A stretch of 64,000 nucleotides of DNA from an uncultured Actinobaculum sp. (GTDB lineage Bacteria > Actinomycetota > Actinomycetes > Actinomycetales > Actinomycetaceae). The notes under the pieces were generated by a model that was not told where the DNA came from, made no database searches, and was given only the letters and a program-made list of their open reading frames with translations. Positions 8,198-57,831 of the stretch are shown here, piece by piece (within the stretch, counting starts at the first letter, position 1; the number at the start of each line of letters is the position of its first letter). Location: the NCBI GenBank assembly GCA_938020505.1, contig CALIHR010000026.1:15138-79137 (forward strand), read 5' to 3'. The position numbers were made by a program, and so were the translations under genes.

Positions 8198-9530
8198 CGG
8201 CGCCTCCTTCGGTCGGAATGAATCCCAGCGCGTCGCCGGGCCTCACGCGTTCGACGTCGGCCGGCACGACGCCGAGCCCGTCCGCCGAGGGAAGCGAGGC
8301 GACCAGGTGCGAGCGCGAGCCGAGTTCGTGGATGGGGAACGCGCGCCCGCCGTCCAAACGCAGGGGGATGAACTGGACCTTCCCGCGAGGCGAGGCCCAT
8401 TCGGCGCCCGCAACCGCCTGCCCGACCGTCGGTTCGACGGCGTCGGAGCGCCCCGCGAGCACCCGGATCATGCCGGCGACGTACACGTGGAAGCTGACGT
8501 AAACAGACACCGGGTTGCCCGGCAGGCACGCCGCGGGCACGGACCGTCCGCCGACGCGGGCCGTCCCTGCGCCCTGCGGCCCGCCGGGCTGCTGGGCGAC
8601 GGCGTGGAAGCGCATCGAGGGCCCGGAAAGGGCCTGCCGCACCGTCTCGTACGCCCCCGCGGATATTCCCCCCGCGGTGACGAGCAGATCGATCTCCGGC
8701 GCGGACGCCAGAATCGCGAGCAGGTCCTCGGGGTCGTCCGCGCTGCGCCACCTGGCGACGACGTCGCCCCCCGCCTGCGCCGCGAGCCCGGACAGAAGGA
8801 CTCCGTTCGAGTCCGGGATGCGGCCCTCGGCGAGCTCCCCGCCAGGGGCGACGAGTTCGCTCCCCGAGGTGAGGATTCCGATGCGCGGACGAGGCCGGAC
8901 GAAGAGCGTCCCGCAGCCCGCCGACGCCGCCGCCGAGACCGCGGCGGGGGTGAGGACGGCGCCCGCGGGAAGGACGGGCGCGCCCGCATCGAGGTCTTCG
9001 CCCTTGAAGCGCACATTGGCGCCCGGGGTCTGGGGCGCCCGGACCGTCACCGTCGGGGGCGCCTCGCTCACGCCGGCCGCATGGTCTGTGTCTTCCACCC
9101 TGACGACGGTGTCCGCGCCGTCCGGCATCGCCGCCCCCGTCATGATCCGAATCGCCGTCCCCGGCGTGAGCGTGTATTTGCCCGTGTCCCCGGCCGCCAC
9201 GTCGCCGCAGACCGGCAACGTGGCCGGAATGCGGGCGACGTCGGCGTGGCGAACGGCGAAGCCGTCCATCGCGGAGTTTGTGAACGGGGGAACGCTCAGG
9301 CGGGCGACCACGTCCCGCGCCAGCACGAGCCCCGCCGAGCTCGCCGCGACGGGCGGAGCGGAACGGCCCGGCCAGACGGCGCCGGCCGGGCCGGCGATGG
9401 CGCATTCGAGCGGCGGCGCGCCCTCACGGCCGGTCCCGTAGGGCAGGGCGTCGATGGCGCATTCGAGCGGCTCCAACGGTTCGACGAGCCCGTCGAGGAA
9501 TGCCCGATGCTCTGAAACGCTGAATCTCAC
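8190..9530 (-). CDS. moeA: Molybdopterin molybdenumtransferase MoeA. Start set at the GTG that overlaps the moaE stop (GTGA).
   Basis: PFTNSAMDGFAVR and GAAMPDGADTVVRVEDT motifs plus the C-terminal MoeA domain. The N-terminal region contains an internal duplication (see the repeat feature at 9405-9470). Confidence 0.85.
   Translation of the reverse strand: MRFSVSEHRAFLDGLVEPLEPLECAIDALPYGTGREGAPPLECAIAGPAGAVWPGRSAPPVAASSAGLVLARDVVARLSVPPFTNSAMDGFAVRHADVARIPATLPVCGDVAAGDTGKYTLTPGTAIRIMTGAAMPDGADTVVRVEDTDHAAGVSEAPPTVTVRAPQTPGANVRFKGEDLDAGAPVLPAGAVLTPAAVSAAASAGCGTLFVRPRPRIGILTSGSELVAPGGELAEGRIPDSNGVLLSGLAAQAGGDVVARWRSADDPEDLLAILASAPEIDLLVTAGGISAGAYETVRQALSGPSMRFHAVAQQPGGPQGAGTARVGGRSVPAACLPGNPVSVYVSFHVYVAGMIRVLAGRSDAVEPTVGQAVAGAEWASPRGKVQFIPLRLDGGRAFPIHELGSRSHLVASLPSADGLGVVPADVERVRPGDALGFIPTEGGADG
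9405..9470. repeat. Perfect 19-20-bp direct repeat (CGATGGCGCATTCGAGCGG, twice, 47 bp apart) inside the moeA 5' region. It duplicates the peptide PLECAI and lengthens the MoeA N-terminus.
   Basis: Read directly from the sequence at 9405-9423 and 9452-9470. Confidence 0.7.
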
Positions 9531-9955
9531 GCGGACTCCAATCCCGACCAGCTGTGGCTGCCGTCGGCCATGATCTGCTTTTTCCACACAGGCAGGCGAG
9601 CCTTGACTTCGTCCACCATGGCCTCGGCCGCGGCAAAGGCCTGGGACCGGTGCTCGGCGGCCACCGCGACCACCATGAGGACGTCGCCGACGTCCAGCAG
9701 CCCCGTTCGATGCCAGGCCTCGACGCGGTGAACGCCCTGGCGCAGTGTCAGGCCTTCAGCGATCGACCGCAGGATGCGCGCGGCCGAGGGGTGCGCCGTG
9801 TACTCGAGCGCGGCCACGCTCGCGCCGCCCGAATGGCCGCGGACGGTTCCCTGGAACATCGCGACGGCACCGCAGCGCGGATCGTGCGCGTCCTTGCAGA
9901 TTGCGGCGGCGTCCAGCCGCTGGGCCGTGAGCCCGGTGTGAACGACGTCGAGCAT
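9527..9955 (-). CDS. moaE: Molybdopterin synthase catalytic subunit MoaE
   Basis: MLDVVHTGLTA...AMFQGTVRGHSGG...HRVEAWHRTGLLDVGDVLMVVAVAAEHR. The ATG lies 1 nt after the stop of the upstream gene. Confidence 0.85.
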   Translation of the reverse strand: MLDVVHTGLTAQRLDAAAICKDAHDPRCGAVAMFQGTVRGHSGGASVAALEYTAHPSAARILRSIAEGLTLRQGVHRVEAWHRTGLLDVGDVLMVVAVAAEHRSQAFAAAEAMVDEVKARLPVWKKQIMADGSHSWSGLESA

Positions 9956-9956
9956 C

Positions 9957-11000
9957 TCACCCTCCAGCGAAAGGCGGCAGCACCTCGACGACGGCGCCGT
10001 CGCGAAGAGGCGCGTCGGCTCCCGACTCGCGTTCGTCGACGAGGAATGAGGAAATGTCGGCCACCCGCGCGAAATCGGGGAACTCGGCGGCAAGCCCGTC
10101 TATGAGCGCGCGGAGGGTCGCTGGCGCCGAGGAGCGCGGGAACGTCATGCTGTCGGTCTGGACCGCTTCTGCGGCGCCTCCGTAAAAGCGAACGGTCAGC
10201 CGCCTGCTGCCCGCCGTCTGCGGGCCGTCCCGTTCGCACAGCTTCAGCTTCGCGACCACCGGGTTGTCCGGGTCGGCGGCGAATTCGACGTCGACGTCCG
10301 CGCCGCAGGCGGCCTGAACGATCCGCTCGACGGCGCCGCGGCGCAGTTCGAGGGCGAGGGGGTCCGGAAAGGCGGGGTCGGTGTACGGGCACGCGTTGAG
10401 GATGAGGCACGACGGCGAGGTCGGATGCGAGGCCGCCGCAAAGCCCATATTTGTGAGAAAGCGGCGAATGCAGTCGGCGTGGCGCGTGAGGGCGGAGCCT
10501 GGGCGCCCCGAGGCTTTCGGGCCGCCGGCCGGGCCGTCCAGAAGCTCGGCCGACTCGCCGGCGGACACGGCCTGCTCTCCCCACCTTGCGCCGATGTCGT
10601 AGGCCGCCTCGGCCGGATCGGGGGCGTTGTCGCGGAGCCAGGCGAGCGTGGCCGAAACGCTCTGTTCGAGGAGCTGGCCGGCGAAGGCGGCGTTGGCGGG
10701 GGCGAGCGTGAGGTATCCGAGAGCGGGCCTGCCCCGCCCGGAAATCGGGAGCTGCTCGCGGGTGACCAGCCCCGAATTGTAGAGGGCTTCAAGGGTTTCG
10801 CGGACGGACGAGGCGTGCAGGCCGCTTTCCTTGGCCAGCTGGGTGACGGTCACCGGGACGTTGTGGCGTGAGACGGCGGTCAGAAGCGAGTGCTGCGCAG
10901 GGGTCAACCGGGCGATCGCAGACAGCAGATCGCCGAATCGATGGCGCTCGGCGCTCACGAACCCTCCTTTGCAGATTGCGTTTCGCCCTTTGACCGGCAT
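9957..11000 (-). CDS. moaD: Fusion protein: an N-terminal winged-helix transcriptional-regulator-like domain plus a Cys-containing middle domain, joined in frame to a C-terminal MoaD/ThiS-type sulfur-carrier domain that ends in Gly-Gly.
   Basis: Residues ~30-100 read like a wHTH (LLTAVSRHNVPVTVTQLAKESGLHASSVRETLEALYNSGLV). The middle has HADCIRRFL...CLILNACPY. The last ~85 aa read LTVRFYGGAAEA...LRDGAVVEVLPPFAGG, which is MoaD-like with a free C-terminal GG. There is no in-frame ATG or GTG at the MoaD domain boundary. Confidence 0.65.
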   Translation of the reverse strand: MPVKGRNAICKGGFVSAERHRFGDLLSAIARLTPAQHSLLTAVSRHNVPVTVTQLAKESGLHASSVRETLEALYNSGLVTREQLPISGRGRPALGYLTLAPANAAFAGQLLEQSVSATLAWLRDNAPDPAEAAYDIGARWGEQAVSAGESAELLDGPAGGPKASGRPGSALTRHADCIRRFLTNMGFAAASHPTSPSCLILNACPYTDPAFPDPLALELRRGAVERIVQAACGADVDVEFAADPDNPVVAKLKLCERDGPQTAGSRRLTVRFYGGAAEAVQTDSMTFPRSSAPATLRALIDGLAAEFPDFARVADISSFLVDERESGADAPLRDGAVVEVLPPFAGG

Positions 11001-11808: not shown

Positions 11809-12491
11809 GGTTGCAGCCTTTCCTGCGACGTCGGGAAAGGGGCGGCGGTCAGATCGCCTATGCCCACGAGTTCGGTGGGCGGCCCCTGGCTGATGAGCTT
11901 TCGATAGCCTTCGATCGCTTCCGGGCTGGGTTCCGGAAGCGTCAGGACGAGTGCGTTGAGAAGATGGGCGTAAGGCGAATCGGCACTGCGCAGAGCCGTG
12001 CGTAGCACCTCGATTCCCTCCCGGTTCGCCCCCAGCAGGTCCTCGCCGACGCCGGATTCGTCGAGGGCGCAGAACTCCAAAACCACGGGCAGGTGGTCGG
12101 GAAGCTCTTCGCGAGCCGGCTCGAAGCCTGCGCGGGCCATAACCTCCTTGAAAGCGAGGATCGCTTGGCCGCGGCCTCGTGTGTCGCCCTGCGAATAGTA
12201 GGTCAGGGAGAGGGCGCAGCGCCTGCGCTGGTCGAAGGTCTCGACGTAGAGAACCTGAAGCGCGCGCAGCCCCGTCTGTTCTGCCTGCGTGCAGAAGGCC
12301 TCCAGCTCTTCGGCCACCTCGTCCGGCAGAGCGTGCAGCTCCGCCCTGACCGCGGCGATCTCGCTTTCGAGGGCCTCGTCGGGGTAGTCGAGCAGCAGCG
12401 AGCACGCCATGCGTATGATCCGGGCCTGGCCGGCGTCGACCCGTATGCGGCGTTTGCTCGGAATCCTGGGGATTCCCACGAATGTGCTCAT
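11805..12491 (-). CDS. narJ: Nitrate reductase molybdenum cofactor assembly chaperone NarJ
   Basis: CSLLLDYPDEAL...LQVLYVETFD...PDHLPVVLEFCALD. Four-nt overlaps with narH (upstream) and narI (downstream). Confidence 0.9.
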   Translation of the reverse strand: MSTFVGIPRIPSKRRIRVDAGQARIIRMACSLLLDYPDEALESEIAAVRAELHALPDEVAEELEAFCTQAEQTGLRALQVLYVETFDQRRRCALSLTYYSQGDTRGRGQAILAFKEVMARAGFEPAREELPDHLPVVLEFCALDESGVGEDLLGANREGIEVLRTALRSADSPYAHLLNALVLTLPEPSPEAIEGYRKLISQGPPTELVGIGDLTAAPFPTSQERLQP

Positions 12492-14023: not shown

Positions 14024-17000
14024 CAGAACTGCACCTCCTGGCTGCGGCGGCGGATCATCGTGACCTCGTCGCGCTGGTTGCCCGTGGGCCCGTAGTAGTT
14101 GAATGCGAAGGAGAGCTGGGCGTACCCGCCGATGAGATGGGTCGGCTTGAGCAGGATGCGCGTCAGCGAATTGTGGGTTCCGCCTCGCCTGCCCGAGCGT
14201 TCGTTGAGCGGAGTGTTCATCGTCCGCTCCTGGGCGTGGTGCATGAACACGGTGCCCTCGGGCATGCGGTGGGAGACGACCGCCCTGGCCGAAACGATGC
14301 CGTTTCGGTTGTAGGCCTCGACCCATTCGTTGTCCTTGACGCCGATCTTCTCCGCGTCCTGGGGGCTCATCCAGATGGCCTGGCCTCCGCGCCCCAACGT
14401 CAACATGTGCGGATTGTCGAAGTACTGGGAGTGGATCGCCCATTTGTTGTGAGGGGTGAGGTAGCGCACCGCGACTTCGGCCGTTCCCTCCGGCGAGACC
14501 CCCGTGGCGCCGAGTTTGACGTCTCCGTACAAATGGTGGAGGTCCAAAGGAGGGCGGAAGATCGGCAGCGTCTCGCCGAGCTCTTGCATCCAATCGTGGT
14601 CGATGTAGAACTGCGGACGCCCGGTCAGCGTGTGCCAGGGCTTGTTCCGCTCGACGTTCTGGACGAAGGCGCTGTACCGGCGCCCGCCGTGCTCGGAGCC
14701 CGACCACTCGGGCGAGGTGATGACGCTCCGCGGCTGGATCCGGGTGTCGTCGAAGCTGATTCTGCGCTCCTCGTCGCCGAGGGCCAAGTCCGCCATCTCG
14801 GTTCCCGTTCGGGCCTCCAGGCGTTTGAACCCCTGGTAGGCCAGCCGCCCGTTGGTCGTGCCGGACAGGCGCAGAACCGCGTCGGCGGCCTTGACGTCGG
14901 CGTCGACGAGCGGGCGCCCTGCCCCGGGCCCGTAGTCTTGCGGAGCCGTTCCGTTCAGTCTGCCGAGGTAGTCGACCTCTTCGTCGGGAGTGAGCAGGAG
15001 CCCTTTGATCGGCATGCCCGCCTTCTCGACGAGGGGGCCGAGGGTGTCGAACTTGTGCCCAATCTGCGTGTAATCGCGTTCTATGCCGACGATCTTCGGC
15101 ATTGTCACGCCGGGGACCCACGGGTTGTCGGGCGGGACCGCCCCGGCGGGGTTGGCGAATTCGTCGGGGGTGTCGTGGCTGAGCGGCGCGGCCAGCGCGT
15201 CGATCTGCGTTCCCAGATGCCTGGAGGCCATGTCGGAGACGAGGTAGGCGAGGGTCTGGAACGTCTCGAAATCGGTGCGGGCCTCCCACGGCGGGTCGAC
15301 CGCCGCGTTGAACGAATGCATGAACGGGTGCATGTCCGTCGACGACAGGTCGTGCTTTTCGTACCAGGTCGCCGCGGGAAGGACGACGTCGGAGTGCAGC
15401 GTGGTCGACGTGTTGCGGAAGTCGGCCGTCCACATGAGGTCGAGCTTGCCGTTGACGGGCTCCCTCCACGTCATCGAGGCCGGGCGCCGATCTCCTTCGA
15501 GCTCCACGGCGTTGACGTCGTTGTCGGCGCCGATGAGGTGGCGAAGGAAGAACTCGGTTCCCTTGGCGGACGAGCCGAGCAGGTTGGTGCGCCAATTGGC
15601 GAGGATGCGCGGCACGTTCTCGGCGGCGTCGGGGTCCTCCACGGCGAAGCGGAGCCTGCCTTCGCGCAGCTCGCGCGAAACGTACTCTCCGGGGGCCAGC
15701 CCGGCCTCTTTCGCCTCCCGGCCCAAAGCGAGCGGGGACTTGTTGAACGTCGGATAGCTCGGCATCCAGCCGCGCTGGGCGGACTCGACCAGGCAGTCGG
15801 CCGTGGTTTTGCCGTTGAGCGCGCCGGCGGCGGTCGGGCTCGCCATGAACTTGACCTGCGCGCCGTCGTAACGCCACTGACTGGTGGAGATGTAATACCA
15901 CCCGGTGGAGATCATCTGCCGCGCGGGGCGCTGCCAGTCCAGGGCGAAGGCGTAGCTCGCCCATCCGGTGATGGGGCGGACCTTCTCCTGGCCGACGTAG
16001 TGCGCCCACCCGCCGCCGTTGACGCCCTGGGTTCCGCACATCGTCGTCAGCGCGAGGAACGTCCGGTAGATCGTGTCGGAATGGAAGTAGTGGTTCGTCC
16101 CCGCGCCCATGAGGATCATTGAGCGTCCGCCGGATTCGAGGGCGTTGGCGGCGAATTCCCGGCCGATCTTGACGGCTGCGCCGGCGGGCACGCCCGTGAG
16201 CTCTTCCTGCCAGGCAGGAGTGCCGGGGGCGGTCGAATCGCCGTAGCCGGAAGGCCACTGGCCCGGCAGCCCCTCGCGCCCCACGCCGTACTGCGCGAGC
16301 AGAAGGTCGAAGACGGTCGTGACCAGGCGGCCGCCGACCCTGCGGGCGGGAACTCCGCGGTACACGACGCCTGCCCCGATCGAGCCCTGGCCCTCTTCGG
16401 CCGGAAGGTCGAATCGCGGCATCGCGACGAGGGCGGGCTCCCAGGCGTCGGTGTCCATGACTGACATCACGGGCTCGACGCCGTCGAGCTTGAGGTTCCA
16501 GTGACCGGCGCCTTCCTCGCCGAAACGGTCGGCCAGCGTGCCGCCCGGATCTTTGAGGGCGCCGTCGGCCTCCATGACGAGCGGGCGGAAGTCGCTGTGC
16601 TCGGTGCGTTCGGCGGTTCCGGCGGGCGCGAGGTTCGCGGTGTAGAACTTGCCCGGAACATAGGCCTCCATGTGCGAGGGGCTCGCGTCGGCCGCGCGGT
16701 CGAGCTGGATGAGGAACGGGCTGTCGGAGTAGCGCTTCATGTAGTCGATGAAGTACTGCTCGCGCCGGGCCAGGAAAAACTCCTTGAGAATGACGTGCCC
16801 CATGGCGATCGCCAGCGCGGCGTCGGTTCCGGGGTGGACTCTCAGCCAGTCGTCGGCGAACTTCGTGTTGTCGGCGAAATCGGGGGAGACCACCACCACT
16901 TTTTGTCCGTGGTAGCGGGCCTCGGCCATGAAATGGGCGTCGGGCGTGCGCGTGAGCGGGACGTTCGACCCCCACATGATGAGGTACTGCGAATTGAACC

Positions 17001-17748
17001 AGTCGCCGGATTCGGGGACGTCCGTCTGGTCGCCGAACATCTGCGGGCTCGCAGGGGGAAGGTCGGCGTACCAGTCGTAGAAGGAGAGCATGGTCGCGCC
17101 GATGAGCTCGTGGAATCGCGAGCCCGCCGCGTAGGAGATCATCGACATCGCGGGGATGACGGAAAATCCTGCGATGCGGTCCGGGCCGAATTCTTTGATC
17201 GTGTGGACGTATGAGGCGGCCACGATCTCCATCGCCTCTTCCCACGTCGTGCGCACCATGCCGCCTGTTCCGCGGGCGGATTTGTAGGCTTTGGCCTTGA
17301 CGGCGTCGCCGACGACGTCGCCCCACGCCAAAACGGGGTCGCCCAGACGGTCTTTGGCCTCGCGGTACATGTCCAACAGCACCCCGCGGACGTAGGGATA
17401 CTTGATGCGCGTGGGCGAGTACTCGTACCAGGAGAACGCGGCGCCGCGGGGGCATCCGCGCGGCTCGTACTCGGGCATGTCGGGGCCGGTGGTCGGGTAG
17501 TCGGTCTGCTGGGACTCCCAGGTGATGATCCCGTCCTTGACGTAGATCTTCCACGAGCACGACCCCGTGCAGTTGACGCCGTGCGTCGAACGAACCACCT
17601 TGTCGTAGCTCCAACGCTGGCGGTAGAAGGAATCCGCCTGGCGTCCGCCCTCGAGGAAGAGCTGGCGGGCGTCGCCGCTCGCCTGGCCTCGCCTGAGCCA
17701 CGAGCCCATCTTCAGGAGGGGGGAGCCGAGTGTCTCTTTGGATGTCAT
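14023..17748 (-). CDS. narG: Respiratory nitrate reductase alpha subunit NarG (Mo-bisMGD)
   Basis: 1241 aa. The N-terminal FS0 motif HGVNCTGSCSWKIYVKDGIITWESQQTDYP is typical of NarG. The stop overlaps the narH ATG. Confidence 0.95.
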   Translation of the reverse strand: MTSKETLGSPLLKMGSWLRRGQASGDARQLFLEGGRQADSFYRQRWSYDKVVRSTHGVNCTGSCSWKIYVKDGIITWESQQTDYPTTGPDMPEYEPRGCPRGAAFSWYEYSPTRIKYPYVRGVLLDMYREAKDRLGDPVLAWGDVVGDAVKAKAYKSARGTGGMVRTTWEEAMEIVAASYVHTIKEFGPDRIAGFSVIPAMSMISYAAGSRFHELIGATMLSFYDWYADLPPASPQMFGDQTDVPESGDWFNSQYLIMWGSNVPLTRTPDAHFMAEARYHGQKVVVVSPDFADNTKFADDWLRVHPGTDAALAIAMGHVILKEFFLARREQYFIDYMKRYSDSPFLIQLDRAADASPSHMEAYVPGKFYTANLAPAGTAERTEHSDFRPLVMEADGALKDPGGTLADRFGEEGAGHWNLKLDGVEPVMSVMDTDAWEPALVAMPRFDLPAEEGQGSIGAGVVYRGVPARRVGGRLVTTVFDLLLAQYGVGREGLPGQWPSGYGDSTAPGTPAWQEELTGVPAGAAVKIGREFAANALESGGRSMILMGAGTNHYFHSDTIYRTFLALTTMCGTQGVNGGGWAHYVGQEKVRPITGWASYAFALDWQRPARQMISTGWYYISTSQWRYDGAQVKFMASPTAAGALNGKTTADCLVESAQRGWMPSYPTFNKSPLALGREAKEAGLAPGEYVSRELREGRLRFAVEDPDAAENVPRILANWRTNLLGSSAKGTEFFLRHLIGADNDVNAVELEGDRRPASMTWREPVNGKLDLMWTADFRNTSTTLHSDVVLPAATWYEKHDLSSTDMHPFMHSFNAAVDPPWEARTDFETFQTLAYLVSDMASRHLGTQIDALAAPLSHDTPDEFANPAGAVPPDNPWVPGVTMPKIVGIERDYTQIGHKFDTLGPLVEKAGMPIKGLLLTPDEEVDYLGRLNGTAPQDYGPGAGRPLVDADVKAADAVLRLSGTTNGRLAYQGFKRLEARTGTEMADLALGDEERRISFDDTRIQPRSVITSPEWSGSEHGGRRYSAFVQNVERNKPWHTLTGRPQFYIDHDWMQELGETLPIFRPPLDLHHLYGDVKLGATGVSPEGTAEVAVRYLTPHNKWAIHSQYFDNPHMLTLGRGGQAIWMSPQDAEKIGVKDNEWVEAYNRNGIVSARAVVSHRMPEGTVFMHHAQERTMNTPLNERSGRRGGTHNSLTRILLKPTHLIGGYAQLSFAFNYYGPTGNQRDEVTMIRRRSQEVQF

Positions 17749-26115: not shown

Positions 26116-26339
26116 GGCTTCATGGTATCGGCGGGGACCGACGCTTTTCCGTCTCCATTCTCCCGCTCGCCGACGGAGGCCCACAGCTTCGCCGACGGGG
26201 TCGGCCTGCCGCTCCGCGGGCCGGCGTTCGCCACCTGCTTGTCGCGCCCCGTCAGGCGCCGGCCTGCCCGGCGCCTGACGGGTAACACGCGGCCGGGCCG
26301 GACGGCTGACTCGCATAGGCGGCGCGGTAGGCTTGAGGC

Positions 26340-27449
26340 GTGAGCGAGATCGAGATAGGACGGGGAAAGAGGGCGCGTCGCGCCTACACGCTGGACGACG
26401 TCGCCGTCGTCCCAAGAAGGCGCACCCGCGACGCCGACGAAGTCTCCACTTCCTGGCAGTTCGACGCCTACCACTTAGACATCCCGGTTCTTTCGGCCCC
26501 CATGGATTCGGTTTCCTCCCCGGCCACGGCGATCGAGATCGGAAGGCTCGGCGGGGTGGGGGTCCTCGATCTGGAGGGCCTGTGGACGCGTTACGAGGAT
26601 CCTGCGGAGGAGTTCGCCCGAATCGCCCGGGCCGATCCCAAAGAGGCCACCTCCTTGTTTCAACGTCTCTATTCGACGCCCGTCAAACGAGACCTCATTT
26701 TTTCCCGACTGGCAGAAATCCGCTCCGCGGGGGTCCCCGTGGCCGGGGCGCTGTCGCCCGGACGCACGCAGGATCTGTGGAAGACGGTCGTCGATGCGGG
26801 AGTGGACCTTTTCGTCATTCGCGGCACAACGGTTTCCGCCGAGCACGTCTCCGCTTCCCGGGAACCGCTCAATCTCAAGCGTTTCATCTACGAACTGGAG
26901 GTGCCCGTCCTGGTCGGCGGCGCCGTGACCTACACCGGCGCGCTCCATCTCATGCGCACCGGCGCGGCCGGCGTGCTCGCCGGATACGGGGGAGGGGCCG
27001 CCTCCGCGACCCGCCGAACGGTGGGGATAGCCGCCCCCATGGCAACCGCCGTGGCCGACATCGCCGCGGCGCGCCGAGATTACCTCGACGAGTCAGGCGG
27101 ACGCTACGTCCACGTCATCGCCGACGGGTCGGTTTCGACCTCCGGCGACCTCGTGAAGGCGATAGCCTGCGGGGCCGACGCCGTCATGCTCGGCACCGCC
27201 TTGGCCAGGGCTGCGGAAGCTCCCGGCCGCGGATGGCATTGGGGGCCCGAGGCGTGGCATGGCACGCTCCCCAGGGGCGAGCGGGTCAAGGTCGCCACGG
27301 TCGGACGCCTCCGCGACATCCTCAACGGCCCGTCCCACCAGGCCTCCGGGTTCACCAACTTCATGGGGGCGCTGCGCCACGCGATGGCCGCCAACGGATA
27401 CCTCGACCTCAAGGAGTTCCAGCGGGCGGAGCTGGTCGTCACGGCATAG
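26340..27449 (+). CDS. guaB3: GuaB3-type IMP dehydrogenase-related protein (actinobacterial IMPDH paralog without CBS domain)
   Basis: YTLDDVAVVPRRRTRD...VSTSWQFDAY...GGVGVLDLEG is the typical GuaB3 N-terminus, on a TIM-barrel IMPDH fold. Confidence 0.85.
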   Translation: MSEIEIGRGKRARRAYTLDDVAVVPRRRTRDADEVSTSWQFDAYHLDIPVLSAPMDSVSSPATAIEIGRLGGVGVLDLEGLWTRYEDPAEEFARIARADPKEATSLFQRLYSTPVKRDLIFSRLAEIRSAGVPVAGALSPGRTQDLWKTVVDAGVDLFVIRGTTVSAEHVSASREPLNLKRFIYELEVPVLVGGAVTYTGALHLMRTGAAGVLAGYGGGAASATRRTVGIAAPMATAVADIAAARRDYLDESGGRYVHVIADGSVSTSGDLVKAIACGADAVMLGTALARAAEAPGRGWHWGPEAWHGTLPRGERVKVATVGRLRDILNGPSHQASGFTNFMGALRHAMAANGYLDLKEFQRAELVVTA

Positions 27450-27510
27450 CGTCCGAGGCCTGCGACGGCGCAAGCCGACGTCGAGAATCCGAGTTTCCGG
27501 TTCAAACGGC

Positions 27511-27565
27511 GACAAGCCGGCCGCCGAAGGGGCGGCTTTCGCGCGCCTTCGGCGGCCGGCTTGTC
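27511..27565. terminator. Large perfect inverted repeat (19-20-bp arms) between the convergent guaB3 and deacetylase genes, i.e. a bidirectional terminator.
   Basis: gacaagccggccgccgaagg - 16-nt loop - cttcggcggccggcttgtc. Confidence 0.6.
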
Positions 27566-27577
27566 GCAGGCTTCGGC

Positions 27578-29104
27578 CTACTTGACGTTGTGCTGGCTGA
27601 AGATCCTGTGGCCGACGTAGGGAGTCATGTCGTCTCCCATCAGCTGAGGAACCGTCACCAGGGTGTATCCCTTCGCCCGGAGCTGGTCGATCAGCCCGGG
27701 GACGGCGTCGACCGAGCTGGCGTGGATGTCATGCATGAGAATGACCGAACCGGGCCTGGCCCCCGCGAGCGCGCGCTGCGTTGTGACGGCCGCATTCTTG
27801 TTCTTCCAGTCCTCGGTGTCCACGTCCCACCTCGTCTCAGCCATGCCGTTCTCGCCGATGGCCTTGAGCACTGCCGCGTTCGACGAACCGTACGGGGGCC
27901 TCATGAGCACGGGCGCCGGCGCCCCGGCTTGGACGATCGAGTCGGAGGTGTTCTTGAGCTGCTTGTGGAGCTCTTCGGGATTGAGCTTCGTCAACTGAGG
28001 GTGGTTCCACGAATGGTTGCCGACGGAATGGCCCTCGGCGGCCTCCTTCTTGACGATGTCCGGACGGGACTTCACGTTCTTGCCTATGGTGAAGAAGGTC
28101 GCGCGCACGCCCTTTTCCCTCAGCACTGCGAGCAGCCTGTCGGTCTGGTCGCCGGGGCCGTCGTCGAAGGTCAGCGCCACGCAGGAAGCAACCCTGCAAT
28201 CGACGTCGGGCTTCGGAATCGGCTTGTTTTCGGGCTTTGGAATGGGAACGGGATTGGCTTTCTTCATTATTCCCGAGCGGAGCCTCTTTCCGTCCTCGGT
28301 CAGGAGCTTCTCCACGTCGCGGCTTGCCACTCGATAGGAATCGAAGCCGTTCTCTTTGTCGTTGGGCGCCCTAAGCACAAGGGACCCGTCGCTTTGGAAG
28401 AAGACGCCCGCAGAGCTCATGCCGCTTTGAGGATCGGGAGAGGCCGACGGTGTCGGCGCCGACGTCGAAGAGGCCGACGCCGACGGCGTCGCGGTCGGCG
28501 TGGAATCCGAGCTCGGCCTCGCCGTCGGGGAGTCGGAATTCGGCTTCAAAGCGCGCTTTATCGACATACTCACCGACGTCTTGAGCGAAAGGGATTCGAG
28601 GGCGCGGACAACCTTGTTCTTTCCAGATTGGGTGAGCAAATCCTGCGACTGCTTGACGGACTTGTCGCTCATGTCGAGGTACCAAGTCTGGGTCGAAACG
28701 GCCTTCTTGCCCTGCACGTGCTTCGTCGAATCAACGGCGAAGCAGACGATCGTTCCGCTGGCGCCGCAAACTCCGGGCGACATCGTCAAGTATTCCTTGG
28801 ACGAAGGCCGAGACAGCTTCCTTTGCTCCTGCACAGCCCAAAGATTGACCTTTGACGCCAAGACGTCCGGATTCGCCACGTGAACGAGCGAGCTGTGAGG
28901 CGCCGCGGCGCTCTTTTCCGTTCCAACGTCCAACCCTTCGACCGTTTCCGGGCCGTTGAGCGAAATCGGACGCACTTTGGCGATCGAAATGGCCTTTTCT
29001 GTCGGGCGCGTCGTCGCCGAAGCCGCGTGTGTCTGGCTGCTGGCCGCGCACGAAGCGATGGACAGGCACACCAAGCCCACCGCAATGTTTTTATGTGAAC
29101 GCAT
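27578..29104 (-). CDS. Secreted lipoprotein with a C-terminal polysaccharide deacetylase (NodB/CE4) domain and an N-terminal domain joined by Ser/Thr/Pro-rich linkers.
   Basis: ATG with GGAGTGAAG ribosome-binding site. Lipobox LSIASC. NodB motifs ALTFDDGP, HSVGNHSWNHP and ILMHD. Linkers of the type PTATPSASASSTSAPTPSASP and PVPIPKPENKPIPKP. Confidence 0.8.
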   Translation of the reverse strand: MRSHKNIAVGLVCLSIASCAASSQTHAASATTRPTEKAISIAKVRPISLNGPETVEGLDVGTEKSAAAPHSSLVHVANPDVLASKVNLWAVQEQRKLSRPSSKEYLTMSPGVCGASGTIVCFAVDSTKHVQGKKAVSTQTWYLDMSDKSVKQSQDLLTQSGKNKVVRALESLSLKTSVSMSIKRALKPNSDSPTARPSSDSTPTATPSASASSTSAPTPSASPDPQSGMSSAGVFFQSDGSLVLRAPNDKENGFDSYRVASRDVEKLLTEDGKRLRSGIMKKANPVPIPKPENKPIPKPDVDCRVASCVALTFDDGPGDQTDRLLAVLREKGVRATFFTIGKNVKSRPDIVKKEAAEGHSVGNHSWNHPQLTKLNPEELHKQLKNTSDSIVQAGAPAPVLMRPPYGSSNAAVLKAIGENGMAETRWDVDTEDWKNKNAAVTTQRALAGARPGSVILMHDIHASSVDAVPGLIDQLRAKGYTLVTVPQLMGDDMTPYVGHRIFSQHNVK

Positions 29105-52091: not shown

Positions 52092-52244
52092 AACCGTTGA
52101 AAAAGTGCGAATCGACGCTCTCGGGTGCGGGATCGGCTGGGGATGCGAGTCCTCGTTGCGGGGAGGCTGTCGGCGTTCCCGCGTGTCGGGGATCGTTTTG
52201 TCCTCCGGTTTTGCCGCCTTTCAGCTTTTAGGCCTTGCTGCCCC

Positions 52245-53393
52245 TCACTCTTGTGCTATTTGGATGGTTTGTTTGTCGGTGTTGAGGCAGTAGGCGGCTC
52301 CGGTGGCGGTGACCCAGCAGTCGATGCCGTGGGGGTGGCCGGAGATGCTGACGACGCGTCCGCGGGCGTCCAGGGGCGTGAGCGCAGCCGGGACGGTGCC
52401 GGTGGCGGGGTTGTAGGGGCCGGGCTCGACGTAGACGAGCCGGCCGGCGGCGGTCAGGGCGATCTTTCCCGACATGTCCTTGATCGCCGTGCTTGTGGCC
52501 AGGCGGGCCGGGCGCCGGGCGTAGGCGCCGTCGGGGGCGCGGATGCCTCCCCAGCAGTAGACCGAGGCGTCGTCTAGGGCCGCGCAGGATGTGGCGGTGC
52601 GCCGGTCGAAGAGTTTGGCCGCCGGGCGCGGCAGGGGGACTTTGACCACCGAGTGGGGGGCGTGGCGTCCGATGTCGGCCGCCACGCCGAGTTCGCCGCG
52701 GCGGTTGGTTCCCCAGCAGTAGACCGATCCGGATGCGCCCCGGGCGCAGCTTGACCCTTCGGAGGCGGTGACCTGGTCGACTGTCTCGGGCAAGGCCACC
52801 GGGCGCGAGTCTTCCGGGTAGACGTCGCCGGCAGGCGAACTGGTGTTGCCGGTGCTCTGGGCGTAGGAATTGCCCGCCCAACACCGCACCTGCCCCTCGA
52901 CAACCGCACACAAATGATCCCCCGCACCGGCAACGTCTGTCACTGCCTCCGGTGAGAAAATATAGGACAAGTGATTGTAATCCGCGTCTCTGGGGAGCTG
53001 TCGTCTGTCGTTGAGGCCGCCGCACTTGAGAGCGTCCACCATGTCGGTTGTGCAGATGTTGTAATTCGCGTAAAAAACAGCTTTAACCTTTTTGTTTAAA
53101 GGCTCTAAAGGAACAATGTTTCCAAGGCTGCGGTGATTGCCCTTTTTAAGATTGGGGAAAAAGCAGTAGACCTCTTGGCCTTTTGTTTTTAGACAAAGGT
53201 GATGTCTGCCTACCGACACCGATGCAAAGTCACTCCGATACGTGTTGAGAGGGGCCAGCTCGGGCGAGGCGCTCCTCGTTGAAGACGCCACAATGCACAC
53301 CACGAGGGCAAACGCTCGAAAGAAACGCTTGACGATCAGAAACTTACGGCTGGGCTGTTGGCTCGCAGATCTACTCGCTTTGACAGTCTTCAT
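52245..53393 (-). CDS. Secreted RCC1-repeat (seven-bladed beta-propeller-like) protein
   Basis: N-terminal signal-like segment KRFFRAFALVVCIVASS. Recurrent RCC1-blade signatures occur (HHLCLKTKGQEVYCF, DHLCAVVEGQVRCWAGNSYAQ, SCARGASGSVYCWGTNRRGELG, SCAALDDASVYCWGG, IDCWVTATGAAYC). The 5' third of the gene is AT-rich and the 3' two-thirds GC-rich. Confidence 0.7.
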   Translation of the reverse strand: MKTVKASRSASQQPSRKFLIVKRFFRAFALVVCIVASSTRSASPELAPLNTYRSDFASVSVGRHHLCLKTKGQEVYCFFPNLKKGNHRSLGNIVPLEPLNKKVKAVFYANYNICTTDMVDALKCGGLNDRRQLPRDADYNHLSYIFSPEAVTDVAGAGDHLCAVVEGQVRCWAGNSYAQSTGNTSSPAGDVYPEDSRPVALPETVDQVTASEGSSCARGASGSVYCWGTNRRGELGVAADIGRHAPHSVVKVPLPRPAAKLFDRRTATSCAALDDASVYCWGGIRAPDGAYARRPARLATSTAIKDMSGKIALTAAGRLVYVEPGPYNPATGTVPAALTPLDARGRVVSISGHPHGIDCWVTATGAAYCLNTDKQTIQIAQE

Positions 53394-53514
53394 TGGCGAA
53401 TCATCTCGTTTTCAGTGTCTGAAGGGACACAACATTGTTTTGCGCCGTTCGGCGCGCCCGTCAAGTGAACCGATAGCCGAAACAGAGTTGGAACGGCTCG
53501 CTTTGCGGGGCGCA

Positions 53515-55578
53515 TTAAGGCTTCCAATCTTTTTTCACGAAGTTAATGTACTGTTGTACGCGGGCGTCGTCCCCTGTGACGACACCAGTTTTGGGGTTGA
53601 TTCCAACCAACCAGTTGCCCTGCTCGTCCATAAAACGTCGATTGCTGTCGGTTACTTTTCTATTGAACTCGATGGCTTGATTCTTATAGCTAGTGTCGTG
53701 TTCGTTGACTATTATGCGAGTCATTGCTTTGACCTCTGCATTGTCGACGTTGGAACTCAACCTCGTTCTCCTTCTTAGGAGCCTTTCACATACTTTAATT
53801 TCATCTTCGTTGCTTTCTGACGAGGCGGGTCCATTGCCGCCCAGTTTCGCGTCTACGAGCATGCCCCCTATCTGGTCCTCAGGGAAAGAGCCTGCTCCTT
53901 GGGTTATAGTTTGCAAGCTTATAATGTTTAAATCGCTTAGCGATCCATCCTCCGTCACGTACAAGTCTGCAGCAAGTGATTCCGTGTCAATCGTATTGAA
54001 TATGTTGATATACTTAGTTTTAAGTATTTTTATTCCATATTTAATATCCTCTGAGGATAACGATCCTTTATTCTTTCGATAAGCTGCTTCTAAGTCCTTT
54101 TCAAATCCCCTCTTCAAAGAGTCTATGAGCGTCGACTTCGCTTTCTTGCTGAAAGCTATGTCTTTGAAGAAGTCGGAGTCCGCTTTATGCATGGACATTG
54201 CTAGGTTCTGAGTCAGCGCTAGATGGTAGTCGCCTTTCTTTCCTGAGCTTCCTTCTGTGGCACCCGCGACTCCTGTCGGACCACTCATTTCGCTGGCGAG
54301 GTCTGATCCGTATTCCTTGAGAATGTCTCCGGATTTCTCTCTCAGGCCACGATTGAAGTAGCCAAAACGGTCCTGCCCCTCGTGTTCGGCGTCCGATTGA
54401 GACAGCCCATCGGTGTAGCCTTGCAGAAACTCTCGAACTACATACGGCGACTGCGGTTGGCGGGTGTCCGAACTCGCTTCGTCGATGATCTCACCGAGAG
54501 CGTTTCCATAGTCCAAGTAGAACATTTCGTTTTCACTTTGATATGGAAGAACGCGTCTGTGTCCAACAAGGTAGCGGACTAAGCTCGTTGGTTGATCGAC
54601 AGTGTTTTTTACAGCAAACGGCGCTTCTGTCGCCAAAAAAGTGCGTGAGGCCGCGGCATTGCCGCCCATCCCGACTAACATGTTCTGGATTGGATCCCAC
54701 GTTTTTGTCAGCGGAGGGCGGTATTCCACATTTGGAGGGGCAAACGGGCCGGGATGCTTGTAGTCCCAGCTGACGATGTCATCCGCTATCGCGTGTTTTC
54801 CGTTGAGAAAAGCATCTCCCAATCCTAAGTGCGCGCAGCTTTTCGCGGCGTCGGCTATCATGCCGCTGATGAGATAATACCCGGGTTTTCCGGGCCCCTT
54901 GGCAGATGCCTCTTTCCCGTTCCAATAGCTCGGGCCTAACTTGTTCAATCCGTCCAGGTACCTTGCCCTTTGTTGTTTCAACGATGTGTCGAAGTCGTAT
55001 TTGATCTCGTCGAGTCCGGCGTTCCAGGCATTCCAAAGATTGCGGCCATCCGCGTCAAGACCGTTTCGAAGGCCTCCGGCGGTGAGTATGAGAGAGCTTC
55101 CAAGGATGGCGCGCACCTCTCTGGCGGAGTCCTCAGAGAAGTGACTGGTTGTGCTGGCAAGCGACGCCAGTCTCAGAGTGTTGTTCGCGCCAAACGTGAG
55201 CCCAAACGCATTGGCGAAGAAAGGATCCTTGGCCATTCTTTCGCCGTATGCAGTCTTGAAATAGTCGAGGTCCTTCTGTTCGATCTTGCTTTTCAGGCGA
55301 CCGTTGGTTGCCATGAAGACTTGGGTCGCCTTTTTGGCGTCGGCTCTGGCGGAGTCCCAACGGGCCTGGGCGGAAACGTCCCCGCTGTGACCGAGAGCGC
55401 GTGGACCGGAGACGTCTCGTTTGGTTGACATGGCGCAAGCCGATCCGCGGGTTGACGACGTCCCGGCAGAGCCGGTTTGACGGCTTTCAGACGGCGCGCA
55501 TCCCGAGACGGCGACGAACAAGGACAGCAAGAAAGCCACGAGTGACCTGCTGTTTCTGAGAGGTTTTCGCGAGTTCAT
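53515..55578 (-). CDS. Large (687 aa) lipoprotein of unknown function, encoded in a compositionally atypical (AT-rich) segment
   Basis: Signal peptide with lipobox VAVSGC. No family recognised. Some stretches are below about 40 % GC, in a genome that is roughly 65-68 % GC. Confidence 0.7.
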   Translation of the reverse strand: MNSRKPLRNSRSLVAFLLSLFVAVSGCAPSESRQTGSAGTSSTRGSACAMSTKRDVSGPRALGHSGDVSAQARWDSARADAKKATQVFMATNGRLKSKIEQKDLDYFKTAYGERMAKDPFFANAFGLTFGANNTLRLASLASTTSHFSEDSAREVRAILGSSLILTAGGLRNGLDADGRNLWNAWNAGLDEIKYDFDTSLKQQRARYLDGLNKLGPSYWNGKEASAKGPGKPGYYLISGMIADAAKSCAHLGLGDAFLNGKHAIADDIVSWDYKHPGPFAPPNVEYRPPLTKTWDPIQNMLVGMGGNAAASRTFLATEAPFAVKNTVDQPTSLVRYLVGHRRVLPYQSENEMFYLDYGNALGEIIDEASSDTRQPQSPYVVREFLQGYTDGLSQSDAEHEGQDRFGYFNRGLREKSGDILKEYGSDLASEMSGPTGVAGATEGSSGKKGDYHLALTQNLAMSMHKADSDFFKDIAFSKKAKSTLIDSLKRGFEKDLEAAYRKNKGSLSSEDIKYGIKILKTKYINIFNTIDTESLAADLYVTEDGSLSDLNIISLQTITQGAGSFPEDQIGGMLVDAKLGGNGPASSESNEDEIKVCERLLRRRTRLSSNVDNAEVKAMTRIIVNEHDTSYKNQAIEFNRKVTDSNRRFMDEQGNWLVGINPKTGVVTGDDARVQQYINFVKKDWKP

Positions 55579-56076
55579 GAGAGTTTCCCACCGGGTGCTG
55601 AAACGCGGAGCTTCTCGGACTCCAACCGTTCTTGCCTGGCCCGTTCACGTACTGCGCGACTTGACGAGAGCTCCGGTGCGGGGGCGCCGCAAAGCCCCGT
55701 TGCCGCGATTCTCGCCCTTACGCGGCCAAAACTGAGATCGCCCATGCGCGCTTCCTTCCAGAAGTTTGACGTGATATGCAAACCTTAGCACTGCACGAAC
55801 GCTCCCGCAGGCTGTTTCAACATGTGAGCCGCCGGCTCAGGCGGCCTGCCTGAGCTGCGCAAAAGCAGAGCGGCACATTAGAAAGGAATCCGACGTCCCT
55901 ACGGAATCGGACATGGTTGAGTCATCAAACATGGCTTGAGGCTGCCCGTTTCAGGCAGCGGCTTGTAGGCTCGGGGTCTGAAAACAACGGCGCCCCAGCC
56001 GTTGGGCGGGGGCGCCGTGCCGAAAAATTGCCTTGGCCGGGGAACAGGATTGCCTTGGCTGAAGGGCGGGAGCGCC

Positions 56077-57831
56077 TCAGTCGGAGAGCTTGAGTCCGCG
56101 GAAGCGGTTGAGCGCCGCTCCGGCGTCGACCCTTCGCGGCCGCACAAGGAAGGCCGGATACTCGCGAGCCCCGAAACGCCTCAAAGTGTCCAGCCCGCCG
56201 CTCGTGAGCATGCGCTCGACCTGATCGAGGGCTTCGCCGACGGTGAGCTCTCCGTAGCAGACGTGCTCCAGCATGCCTCGCACGATCCAGGCGATCGCTT
56301 CGCTTTGGCCGCTTTCAACGATCTGCTCGACGTCGGCGAGGCTGATCGTCTGGTTGTCGAGGATGATGCCGTCCGTCCCGGCGGCCTTCGTCTTCGGGCG
56401 GTCGTTTTGCACATTCTCGGGGAGCGGGCAGCGCTTGGACTCGGAGAGGGGCCAAGGCTCGTCCGTTCGCTTGCGAGGCTGCTCTTCGACCACCTTGCGC
56501 GCCCTGTCGGTCACGTCGTAGCACTTGTAAGTGTCGAGCATGATGACCCTGTCCGCGGCGTCCAGGTAATCGCCGGTTCCGCCGGTGATGATGAGGGTCG
56601 AGACGCCGCCGGTGTCGGCCAGCGCGCGAATGCGATCGACCAGGGGGGTGATGGGCTCGGATTCCACGAGCGTGCGCATGCGGGAGTCGCGCATGAGCAG
56701 GTTCGACGCCGAGGAGTCTTCGTCGATGAGCAGCAGGCGGGTGCCGAGCTCGATGGCCTCCATGATCGAGGCCGCCTGGGAGGTTGAGCCGGAGGCGTTC
56801 TCCGTGGTGAAGCGAGCGGTGTCGGCTCCGCCGGGGAGCTCGGTGATGAGCGGGGAGACGTCGACTCCGGTGACGGCGCGTCCGTCGGCCGCCCGAACCT
56901 TCACCGCGTCGGCGACGGTCGCGACCAATTCGCGCCCGTCGCCGGGGATGTGGGCGTAGACGCCGCGCTGAAGAGCGTTGAGCAACGTCGATTTGCCGTG
57001 GTAGCCGCCGCCGACGATGACCATCACACCGGGTTCGATCGCCATTCCCTTGACGAGGCCGGCGTGGGGGAGTGTGACTTCGCGCCGCAGCGATTCGGGC
57101 GACTCAAAGGCGACGGCGTCCTCCATCGGAAGCTGGGAAACGCCGGAAAGGCGAGCCAGCATCGACCCGTCGGCCACAAAGGCAATCCACCCGTTGTCGG
57201 CCAAAGCTTTTTGCAGCGCGTGGTAATCCTCGTAGGCGTGGACATGGGCGCGCATCGCCTCCAGATCGTCCGCGGCCTCAGAGGACGTGAAGTCGAGGGT
57301 GTTGACGATGGCGTCGGGCACGTCGCGGTCGAAAATCTCGGCCGCCGTGCGCCCCAAGATCATCCTGCCCCGCGCCGGCATCTGCACCTGGAATCGCAGC
57401 TCGATTCGGTCCGCGGACACGGAGCAAGCCGAACGCTCGAGTATTTCCTGGCCGGTCCTGGCGATCTGCACGGCGCCGCGGCCGTGGCTCTGGATCTCGC
57501 GGTCAAAAGTCCTAATGAGGAAGTCGGCGACGGCGATGCGCTGCTCGCGCGTTTCAATGAGGCTCGTGGGAAGCCCCATCTTCTCCGGCGTCGACTGAAC
57601 TCTTAGAAGCGACGGCGGCGCAAACGGGTCGGCCTGGATCCGGTCGATCATGACCTGGAAAGTGCCGTAGTCCCAATCTCCGATGACGGTCTTGTATGCA
57701 CCGTATGTTTTGCCATCGAGTTGCTCCAAGGAGCTGAGAAGGTCCGCGTCAGTTCCGGTGCGACGAGCGGGCGGCTCGTCGTAACGGCGGGTATTCGGAC
57801 GAGGACGTTGGAAATCCGAGCGAGAGCGCAT
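56077..57831 (-). CDS. P-loop NTPase of the 'predicted ATPase of the ABC class' type (COG3044-like), stand-alone
   Basis: Walker A GGGYHGKSTLLNAL and Walker B-like LLLIDEDSSASNL within a ~560-aa soluble protein. The start is uncertain. Confidence 0.65.
   Translation of the reverse strand: MRSRSDFQRPRPNTRRYDEPPARRTGTDADLLSSLEQLDGKTYGAYKTVIGDWDYGTFQVMIDRIQADPFAPPSLLRVQSTPEKMGLPTSLIETREQRIAVADFLIRTFDREIQSHGRGAVQIARTGQEILERSACSVSADRIELRFQVQMPARGRMILGRTAAEIFDRDVPDAIVNTLDFTSSEAADDLEAMRAHVHAYEDYHALQKALADNGWIAFVADGSMLARLSGVSQLPMEDAVAFESPESLRREVTLPHAGLVKGMAIEPGVMVIVGGGYHGKSTLLNALQRGVYAHIPGDGRELVATVADAVKVRAADGRAVTGVDVSPLITELPGGADTARFTTENASGSTSQAASIMEAIELGTRLLLIDEDSSASNLLMRDSRMRTLVESEPITPLVDRIRALADTGGVSTLIITGGTGDYLDAADRVIMLDTYKCYDVTDRARKVVEEQPRKRTDEPWPLSESKRCPLPENVQNDRPKTKAAGTDGIILDNQTISLADVEQIVESGQSEAIAWIVRGMLEHVCYGELTVGEALDQVERMLTSGGLDTLRRFGAREYPAFLVRPRRVDAGAALNRFRGLKLSD

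Follow-up and report, generated by a model that had tools for sequence, protein, structure and literature searches.

A truncated relative of Esx-type effectors beside an RCC1-like propeller gene in an uncultured Actinobaculum sp.

A 64-kb stretch of DNA from an uncultured Actinobaculum sp. (contig CALIHR010000026.1; hereafter the window) contains two adjacent genes that encode a protein of 687 amino acids (aa) with a predicted lipoprotein signal peptide and an RCC1-like beta-propeller of 382 aa. On balance, we cautiously favour reading the pair as a derived, Actinomycetaceae-specific Esx module of effector and partner that would have been rerouted to Sec/lipoprotein export. The descriptive core of this reading, namely family membership, truncation and synteny, is held with high confidence. 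That the 687-aa product is a functional lipoprotein is an even call, and a toxin/immunity mechanism is put forward tentatively.

A truncated member of an Esx-type family

The 687-aa protein had been described in an earlier note on this DNA as an orphan without a recognisable domain that could not be placed in any known family. Searches of Pfam, NCBIfam and PDB sequences with this protein indeed gave no match; the word orphan was wrong, as homologues were found. A word-indexed search of 5.8 billion proteins led to six homologue clusters, one of which was the identical protein with a different start. The other five consisted of proteins of ~830 aa that were 41–54% identical to the window protein and carried ~190 additional N-terminal residues with a WxG motif (EGWTGLAA). 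When 1.84 billion representatives were searched exhaustively with a profile, 108 family members were obtained, mostly of 880–960 aa and from Actinomycetaceae, with conservation over profile positions ~1–620 and variable sequence beyond. Named members include proteins of Actinobaculum sp. 313, 352 and oral taxon 183, of Flaviflexus massiliensis and of Schaalia species. One of them is called “WXG100 family type VII secretion target” by NCBI and every other named member “hypothetical protein”. The 687-aa protein is thus a truncated member of a family of ~108 representatives, the full-length ones of which carry a WXG100/T7SS-signal domain (T7SS, type VII secretion system).

Esx substrates are exported by means of a bipartite signal, with WxG on one partner and YxxxD/E on the other (EsxA/EsxB, PE/PPE, EspB). 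The N-domain of the full-length relatives is regarded as an Esx targeting domain because of its Pfam matches, a profile match to EsxA/EsxB and an upstream helper with a YxxxE motif. Among 53 members, N-terminal matches were obtained to T7SS_signal (16), EspA_EspE (12) and WXG100 (12), and the family profile matched EsxA/EsxB chains in the PDB over the entire WXG100 fold with E values between 5e-4 and 0.05. The helper gene (~110–114 aa) was found directly upstream of the effector in every full-length locus whose upstream sequence could be read (ten loci), the survey covering loci L001–L003, L006, L007, L011, L012 and L014–L018. Its conserved C-terminal motif, EFSDACAxLGSG...[YF]DxTE, is of the YxxxE export type, and its stop codon overlaps the start of the effector gene. 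In L001–L003 the helper is broken by a stop into 62 + 50 aa. The best PDB match of the helper profile was 4lws_B with a sub-threshold E value of 0.099, which is suggestive only; we take this chain to be EsxB of Thermomonospora, its database label being just uncharacterised.

The relatives therefore resemble known Esx substrates (EspA/EspE/EspB, PE-PPE pairs, the LXG/Lap proteins of Bacillota and AesA/AesB) in their WxG N-domain with T7SS_signal, EspA_EspE and WXG100 matches, in the ~113-aa YxxxE partner encoded directly upstream with stop/start overlap, and in belonging to the same bacterial family in which Esx was shown to be active. In oral Schaalia, likewise Actinomycetaceae, Esx limits Saccharibacteria epibionts according to a 2026 preprint, the first experimental evidence on Esx effectors of this bacterial family (PMC13622651). 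Distal Esx substrates of Schaalia odontolytica were predicted next to small WXG100-like hairpin genes in the same study (PMC13622651). The window protein differs from all of these in having neither a secretion domain nor a partner. It begins with a signal peptide in the place of a WXG100-like N-terminal domain and shows family homology from ~residue 54 onwards, and of the YxxxD/E partner only a 19-codon remnant of the helper start is left (55745–55690). Without a secretion domain it is a derivative of the family and not itself a T7SS-type substrate. Its ~640-aa body bears no similarity to the bodies of known Esx substrates, and it is distinguished from AesB of Schaalia by the lack of a GYNVP motif and of a Gly-rich disordered region (Gly 9%) as well as by an ordered all-alpha body. 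Esx core genes were absent among ten large open reading frames (ORFs) scanned within the window, which holds no further copy of the family either.

The body was modelled with AlphaFold from an 82-sequence alignment, which gave a confident all-alpha model for residues ~65–687 with a mean predicted local distance difference test score (pLDDT) of 84.9 and a predicted template modelling score of 0.85. A 7-sequence input had resulted in a pLDDT of 52 and was not used. Residues 1–63 were disordered in the model except for the signal helix. No fold match was obtained for the all-alpha model among solved structures. The family-invariant polar residues D295, Y336, R341, D356, Y388, R413 and D473 are kept in the window protein. 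Collinear sub-threshold matches to the Pfam family DUF6571 (PF20211), which comprises uncharacterised actinobacterial proteins of ~730 aa, were seen in the body of three members (13.8–20.7 bits, gathering cut-off 27). A relationship to DUF6571 was rejected as too weak, with no match in the window protein and two of 53 members matching at E ≤ 0.1; literature on DUF6571 was searched for and none was found.

Replacement of the N-terminus and selection on the proposed chimera

The truncation was located at the DNA level by comparison with full-length loci. Over the 5′ leader and the first ~19 codons of the helper, window 55823..55690 was matched by blastn to L001 9583..9719 with 80% identity and to L007, L008 and L017 with 81, 81 and 73%, respectively. 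A second block of homology comprises the effector from ~residue 197 on (window 55386 and downstream) at ~69–74% identity. Against L007, the two flanking blocks are window 55819..55690 and 55386..55180, equivalent to 9103..9235 and 10142..10351. The ~906 nt that have been replaced between them correspond to the rest of the helper and ~190 codons of the WXG100-like secretion domain. Residues ~54–687 of the window protein form the body and are equivalent to residues ~197–830 of the full-length homologues.

The segment that took their place (Table 1) had no match inside it except to the 5′ end of RCC1a, a lipoprotein-like RCC1 gene of a second locus described below. Codons 11–52 of the 687-aa gene matched codons 11–52 of RCC1a by blastn (74.5% over 51 nt, E 0.004) and by tblastn (38% over 42 aa, E 2.6e-4), and the distance from Met to Cys is equal in both. 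These matches lend moderate support to a chimera in which RCC1a(1–52) would be fused to effector(~197–830). The 3′ end of an effector gene was also considered as the source of 55689–55579, by unequal crossover, and was rejected, as local alignments with the 3′ ends of five effector genes did not surpass those of shuffled sequences.

Upstream of the 687-aa gene lies an ORF of 56 codons. Over the first ~19 codons (MGDLSFGRVRARIAAT...) it shares homology with the start of the helper (MSDLSFDRDRAGI...), and the remainder is without a detectable homologue. Its stop overlaps the start of the 687-aa gene as ATGA, in the same way as helper and effector are coupled in the full-length loci. The ORF may be translated into a product or serve as a coupling leader; it has too few sites to judge selection. 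An alignment by MAFFT of its middle part with the helper's EFSDA motif was without support at the DNA level and was not used, and an apparent “KLRV” match upstream of the start was rejected after comparison with shuffles.

The N-terminus of the 687-aa protein (MNSRKPLRNSRSLVAFLLSLFVAVSGC) satisfies the PROSITE lipobox rule PS51257, so that the lipobox VAVSGC pointed out in the earlier note was confirmed. The rule was applied as a positively charged n-region, a hydrophobic h-region and [LVI][ASTVI][GAS]C with the Cys at positions 15–35. In the window protein the lipobox reads LLSLFVAVSGC with Cys27, and two K/R residues (R4/K5) are found among the first seven. The signal segment is the sole hydrophobic stretch of the protein. 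Between the window, L004 and L005 there is no difference in the h-region or the lipobox, and the lipobox is also kept in L009, while the linker behind it varies.

Selection was assessed by comparing the window with L004 and with L005. The 687-aa gene differed by 71 and 79 substitutions, respectively, with zero indels and zero stops, and the ORF is intact in L009 as well. The ratio of nonsynonymous to synonymous substitution rates (dN/dS) was 0.29 against L004 and 0.46 against L005. Compared to ~51 amino acid changes expected from neutral simulation, 35 were observed against L004 (below the 0.1st percentile); against L005, 46 were observed and ~56 expected. The deficit of nonsynonymous changes had binomial p values of 1.5e-6 and 2e-3, and the probability of finding no stop codon under neutrality was 0.086 and 0.067. 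Residues 230–342, the most conserved block of the family, had no amino acid change at all. By these comparisons, which draw on three or four independent assemblies, the 687-aa chimera has stayed intact and is under detectable purifying selection.

It is possible, if rather unlikely, that the 687-aa ORF is a non-functional, decaying relic, in which case the RCC1 gene alone would be useful as an orphan immunity or partner gene and the lipobox would be an accidental remnant of RCC1a. The loss of the helper and the secretion domain would fit such a decay, and so would the relaxed constraint in comparison with the neighbouring genes, whose dN/dS values are 0.01–0.15. Codon 305 (54664–54666) encodes Gly in an M-D-G-N-P motif in the window, L004, L005 and L009, a position at which 72 of 82 family members (88%) and all five full-length homologues of the genus have Asp. 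The start position differs between public gene callers, by which the identical sequence was called as 687, 674 (GTG at V14) or 638 aa (M50). Polymorphic toxin loci often contain toxin fragments left as orphans next to immunity genes that were retained (PMC3482391), and if the relic were real, the locus would be an ordinary orphan fragment next to a retained partner gene. Against decay, the 2,064-nt ORF has stayed free of indels and stops in all four sequences despite 71–79 substitutions (P ~0.07–0.09 each), amino acid changes are well under the neutral expectation and have spared the family-conserved core, the signal h-region and lipobox are invariant in front of a variable linker, and the ATGA coupling and the ancestral 5′ region have been kept.

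The RCC1-like gene as a proposed partner, and exchange of cassettes

In Pfam, the 382-aa protein scored above threshold with both RCC1_2 (38.0 bits; cut-off 22) and RCC1 (28.1 bits; cut-off 21.7), in agreement with the RCC1-like propeller with a signal-like N-terminus proposed earlier. The whole-domain model WD40_RLD scored 59.6 bits, which is below its cut-off of 150 bits. The best PDB sequence matches were RCC1/SRM1 and UVR8. The N-terminus is signal- or anchor-like without a lipobox. The protein thus resembles the seven-bladed RCC1 propellers (RCC1, UVR8, HERC2) by its Pfam scores and PDB matches, but differs from them in being predicted as membrane-anchored or lipidated and extracytoplasmic and in having, at regular spacing, a single Cys-x8-9-Cys pair in each of six blades. 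A function related to guanine nucleotide exchange factors is not plausible. BLIP-II of Streptomyces, a secreted protein of the RCC1 fold that binds tightly to an enzyme as its inhibitor, is a precedent for an actinobacterial proteinaceous inhibitor; it was absent among the sequence matches of the 382-aa protein. The literature searched contained no account of an immunity protein built as an RCC1-like propeller.

Within Peptidiphaga, an RCC1-like propeller always accompanies the family member, and in Actinobaculum sp. 313 a membrane-anchored RCC1-like gene adjoins the helper and a 797-aa member. For P0002, the contig stops short of the partner gene. The second locus of Peptidiphaga gingivicola (L007) contains, in this order, a 117-aa gene, a 569-aa gene with a T7SS-type N-domain and Abhydrolase_8, a DUF4853 lipoprotein gene, the helper, an 833-aa effector and the tandem genes RCC1a (372 aa) and RCC1b (388 aa). 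L001 from a metagenome strain is 97% identical to L007 as far as effector codon ~278. Past this codon, the two cannot be aligned over the remaining effector sequence or over RCC1a; RCC1b is 84% identical, and identity then returns to 97.7%. Judged from this alignment, the swap is the signature of polymorphic effector/partner cassettes, with a constant N-part and an exchanged C-part plus partner; it was found at this paralogous locus and not at that of the window. In a comparison of five loci, the effector C-termini closest to each other were accompanied by the RCC1 N-halves closest to each other, and the effector that diverged most had the RCC1 neighbour that diverged most. This hints weakly at a pairing of effector and RCC1 alleles, the pairs being few and non-independent.

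The first part of the second locus (L007 6250–8920; also in L001, L015, L016 and L018), with the 117-aa small protein, the 569-aa protein of a helical N-domain and Abhydrolase_8 and the DUF4853 lipoprotein, is probably another Esx effector/immunity-like set following the same effector-then-lipoprotein logic. Upstream of the second locus (L007 5300–5900 and L001 5850–6400), peptide strings such as ...RRPPAKHQRD... and ...GGRLVGVLP... recur in every frame, which indicates a tandem DNA repeat array with units of ~60 bp between a RAMA-domain gene and the effector modules.

Each RCC1b gene is a mosaic in which one of at least three allelic versions of the N-terminal half precedes a C-terminal half that hardly varies. 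The mosaic structure was noted between the parts 52245–52820 and 52821–53393 of the window gene and in L004 12195–13343 and L007 13430–14596. The RCC1 copies at the two loci of P. gingivicola BA112 are 59–71% identical over the first 350 nt and 88–100% over the last 700 nt. Base composition changes within the gene: the 5′ 573 nt have a GC content of 53.6%, whereas the 3′ 576 nt reach 71% with 86.5% GC at third codon positions (GC3), which is host-like or above. The pattern looks like intragenomic gene conversion restricted to the C-terminal blades and possibly GC-biased, and such conversion would account for the host-like composition of the 3′ half. In L001 the RCC1 gene is split by a frameshift (12408–13609; 65 + 312 aa). 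The RCC1 database entries P0065–P0067 and P0069 run into an alternative high-GC frame as well. These cases and the break in the L001 helper (9664–10004) may be assembly errors or real pseudogenisation.

Trafficking-domain exchange and polymorphic cassettes are known principles, and a given toxin domain is known to occur behind a WXG-type signal in some proteins and behind a Sec signal in others (PMC3482391). The family resembles the polymorphic toxins of Zhang et al. 2012 (PMC3482391) in the constant trafficking N-part and in a divergent remainder that is swapped together with the downstream gene. Further likenesses are the extra downstream partner genes, mosaic recombination among partner paralogues (compare PMC9484751) and an extracytoplasmic partner, as is the case for envelope-acting toxins. 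It is unlike them in that no toxin domain or fold was found and that the variable part is large (~550 aa) and still homologous between alleles (31–80%). The evidence points towards the toxin/immunity-like pair that was one of the options listed in the earlier note. Among LXG toxins of T7SSb, the immunity proteins are membrane-bound or lipoproteins (TelC/TipC, TslA/TilA).

The propeller might also be a surface receptor, lectin or sensor that aids the effector by docking or by recognition of a target or glycan, with N-terminal blades diversifying in an arms race; this is considered improbable. Such a role would suit a surface-anchored protein with a variable N-terminal and a conserved C-terminal half, and it has a parallel in Schaalia, where Saccharibacteria are sensed and Esx is controlled by EsrA, a beta-propeller of the cell surface that is itself diversifying (PMC13622651). 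It would also agree with the distant RCC1 matches, some of which are secreted multidomain proteins with a fused trypsin-like or Ig-like domain, and with distant family members that pair with non-RCC1 genes. A partner or immunity role is favoured by the tight adjacency of the RCC1 gene to the effector and their exchange as one cassette, by the tandem of a cognate and an extra gene (RCC1a, RCC1b), which resembles immunity arrays, by the predicted anchoring of the propeller on the producer instead of its release, and by the absence of a signalling domain.

For the derived Esx module preferred here, the following course is proposed. The ancestral module would have encoded a ~113-aa helical helper with a C-terminal YxxxE motif, an effector of ~830 aa in which a secretion domain resembling WXG100 (~190 aa) precedes an all-alpha body of ~640 aa, and at least one exported RCC1-like beta-propeller, be it a lipoprotein or a protein anchored by its N-terminus. 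In the lineage of the window, the secretion domain was replaced entirely and the helper for the most part, and the effector body would have gained a lipoprotein signal peptide, apparently from an RCC1a-type 5′ end. The body would thereby leave the Esx route, be exported by Sec, be lipidated at Cys27 and be held on the membrane's outer face. The RCC1-like propeller beside it would bind or neutralise the body as an immunity-like partner, and the module may serve cell-surface conflict, i.e. interbacterial antagonism or defence against Saccharibacteria epibionts. A bolder version is possible but doubtful: an Esx effector that captured the lipoprotein signal peptide of an RCC1-type partner gene and is now permanently tethered to the surface, together with a surface RCC1 propeller, as a pre-deployed defence or antagonism complex (e.g. 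against Saccharibacteria attaching to oral Actinomycetaceae), with a new all-alpha fold and the first RCC1-fold immunity protein or partner.

Several observations weigh against the preferred reading. The start codon is ambiguous, and the lipoprotein assignment depends on initiation at ATG 55578, which is uncertain. The RCC1a signal homology consists of a single modest match (the E values of 2.6e-4 and 0.004 given above), and a search for a closer signal-peptide donor in RCC1a-type proteins gave two close clusters only, neither of them closer. The dN/dS of the 687-aa gene is 5–20 times that of the neighbouring genes. D305G could mean a loss of activity; it may also have attenuated the protein when this became tethered to the surface. 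A recognisable toxin domain was seen neither in the window protein nor in 63 relatives, whose bodies had no match to any Pfam family, toxin families included. Distant members adjoin a 224-aa lipoprotein-like protein, Peripla_BP_2 or a 214-aa protein, and the partnership with RCC1 therefore does not extend to the whole family. A core common to members with different partners fits poorly with a simple scheme of core as toxin and RCC1 as immunity.

The effector family, its helper, the RCC1-fold partner and the apparent capture of a partner-type signal peptide appear to be undescribed. The locus defines an uncharacterised Esx substrate family with a dedicated helper, an unmatched all-alpha fold, strain-level polymorphism and a recurring RCC1-like partner with predicted export. 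It is also a natural experiment in which a secretion domain was swapped for a predicted lipoprotein signal and the gene is still under selection. This bears on the swapping of export routes in conflict proteins and gives a handle on the role and place of the effector body, for which it points to the membrane's outer face. The case would gain in interest if the lipoprotein does function at the cell surface.

Synteny, base composition and surroundings of the locus

The coordinates of the locus are collected in Table 1. The two genes run in the same direction and are separated by 121 bp, as had been reported. They are flanked by fixABCX (+ strand, end at 52034) on one side and by an ABC-class ATPase gene (57831..56077, − strand) on the other. 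A terminator-like hairpin was found behind fixX, where the earlier note had placed the fixX terminator. On the upstream side, the hairpin at 55991..56008 delimits the module as a transcription unit of its own.

Table 1. Features of the two-gene locus in the window.
Feature	Position	Strand	Basis or remark
Terminator-like hairpin after fixX, convergent with the RCC1-like gene	52175..52193	+	consensus scan only; downstream edge of the module
RCC1-like gene, 382 aa	52245..53393	−	ORF list
RCC1-like gene, 3′ half	52245..52820	−	71% GC; 88–100% identical to second-locus paralogue
RCC1-like gene, 5′ half: signal/anchor and N-terminal blades	52821..53393	−	low GC, allelically variable
687-aa gene	53515..55578	−	ORF list; 2,064-nt ORF
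303-nt replacement segment	55387..55689	−	between homology blocks; ~906 nt in full-length loci
RCC1a-like codons 11–52, putative signal-peptide donor match	55423..55548	−	blastn and tblastn
Predicted lipoprotein signal peptide, codons 1–27 (MNSRKPLRNSRSLVAFLLSLFVAVSG, then C)	55498..55578	−	PS51257 pattern
Helper-gene remnant, 56-codon ORF	55575..55745	−	start homologous to helper; open in L004 and L005
5′ leader/promoter region	55746..55823	−	homologous to region upstream of ~113-aa helper in full-length loci
Terminator-like hairpin and T-run closing the ABC-class ATPase gene	55991..56008	−	consensus scan only

The GC content of the window was 65.1% on average (standard deviation 4.2%, windows of 1 kb) and had its minimum of 47.9–50% at 53001–55000. 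GC3 was 59% in the 687-aa gene in comparison to 83–88% in the genes of the ABC-class ATPase, ackA and fixB/C. The drop described in the earlier note was thus the lowest of the 64 kb; it ends inside the RCC1-like gene and not at its end, so the islet is smaller than claimed.

The pair had been interpreted as a horizontally acquired insertion. The window is collinear with P. gingivicola BA112 (NZ_LVZK01000001) at ~94% identity across the region including both genes, and the same two genes are present in a metagenome-assembled genome (L005) and on a metagenome contig (L009). In L017 and L006 the same site is occupied by the order ackA, ABC-class ATPase, helper (113 aa), 831-aa gene, RCC1 gene (388 aa) and fixX, with flanks (pta, ackA, ABC-class ATPase, fixX/fixC) that are 81–86% identical to the window. 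As a complete module is present at the same site in a related species with 81–86% flank identity, the site is old and shared. GC was low in every lineage examined (effector GC3 49–59%). A strain-specific insertion was thereby contradicted; the shared site across species comes near to what the earlier note had itself named as a refutation, i.e. syntenic genes of similarly low GC. The synonymous substitution rate (dS) was 0.07–0.10 in the module and 0.16–0.34 in the flanks; against BA112 it was 0.08–0.10 in the two module genes and 0.16–0.26 in flanking genes. This suggests that the module was exchanged between lineages after their split. With this lower dS, the swap at the second locus and the persistently low GC3, the locus behaves as an exchangeable cassette, and to that extent the idea of horizontal transfer stands.

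A horizontally acquired adhesin or host-interaction module, which had also been suggested, is very improbable. Both products are predicted to be exported, the source habitat of the organism is the human mouth and the composition is atypical, all of which would suit this role. No adhesin, LPXTG, Ig-like or lectin domains were found, however; the body is a compact all-alpha protein in the model, the relatives are Esx-type substrates with helpers, and the site is conserved across species without a recent insertion. An anti-phage defence or surface-modification system is hardly credible. A variable low-GC two-gene cassette would be in line with it, but scans with PADLOC and PHROGs gave no match for either protein or the full-length relatives, nucleic-acid or NTPase domains are absent and both products are predicted to be extracytoplasmic.

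The chromosomal context is ordinary. Pfam domains of a molybdopterin oxidoreductase and a nitrate-reductase delta subunit at 11805–17748 (− strand) probably belong to respiratory nitrate reductase genes. IMP dehydrogenase, an NAD synthase and a molybdate-type ABC transporter fusion are encoded elsewhere in the window. ORFs of 840, 591 and 513 aa at 26333–28855, 7740–9515 and 5642–7183 (all + strand) had no Pfam match at E ≤ 1e-5 and may be spurious high-GC ORFs or uncharacterised genes.

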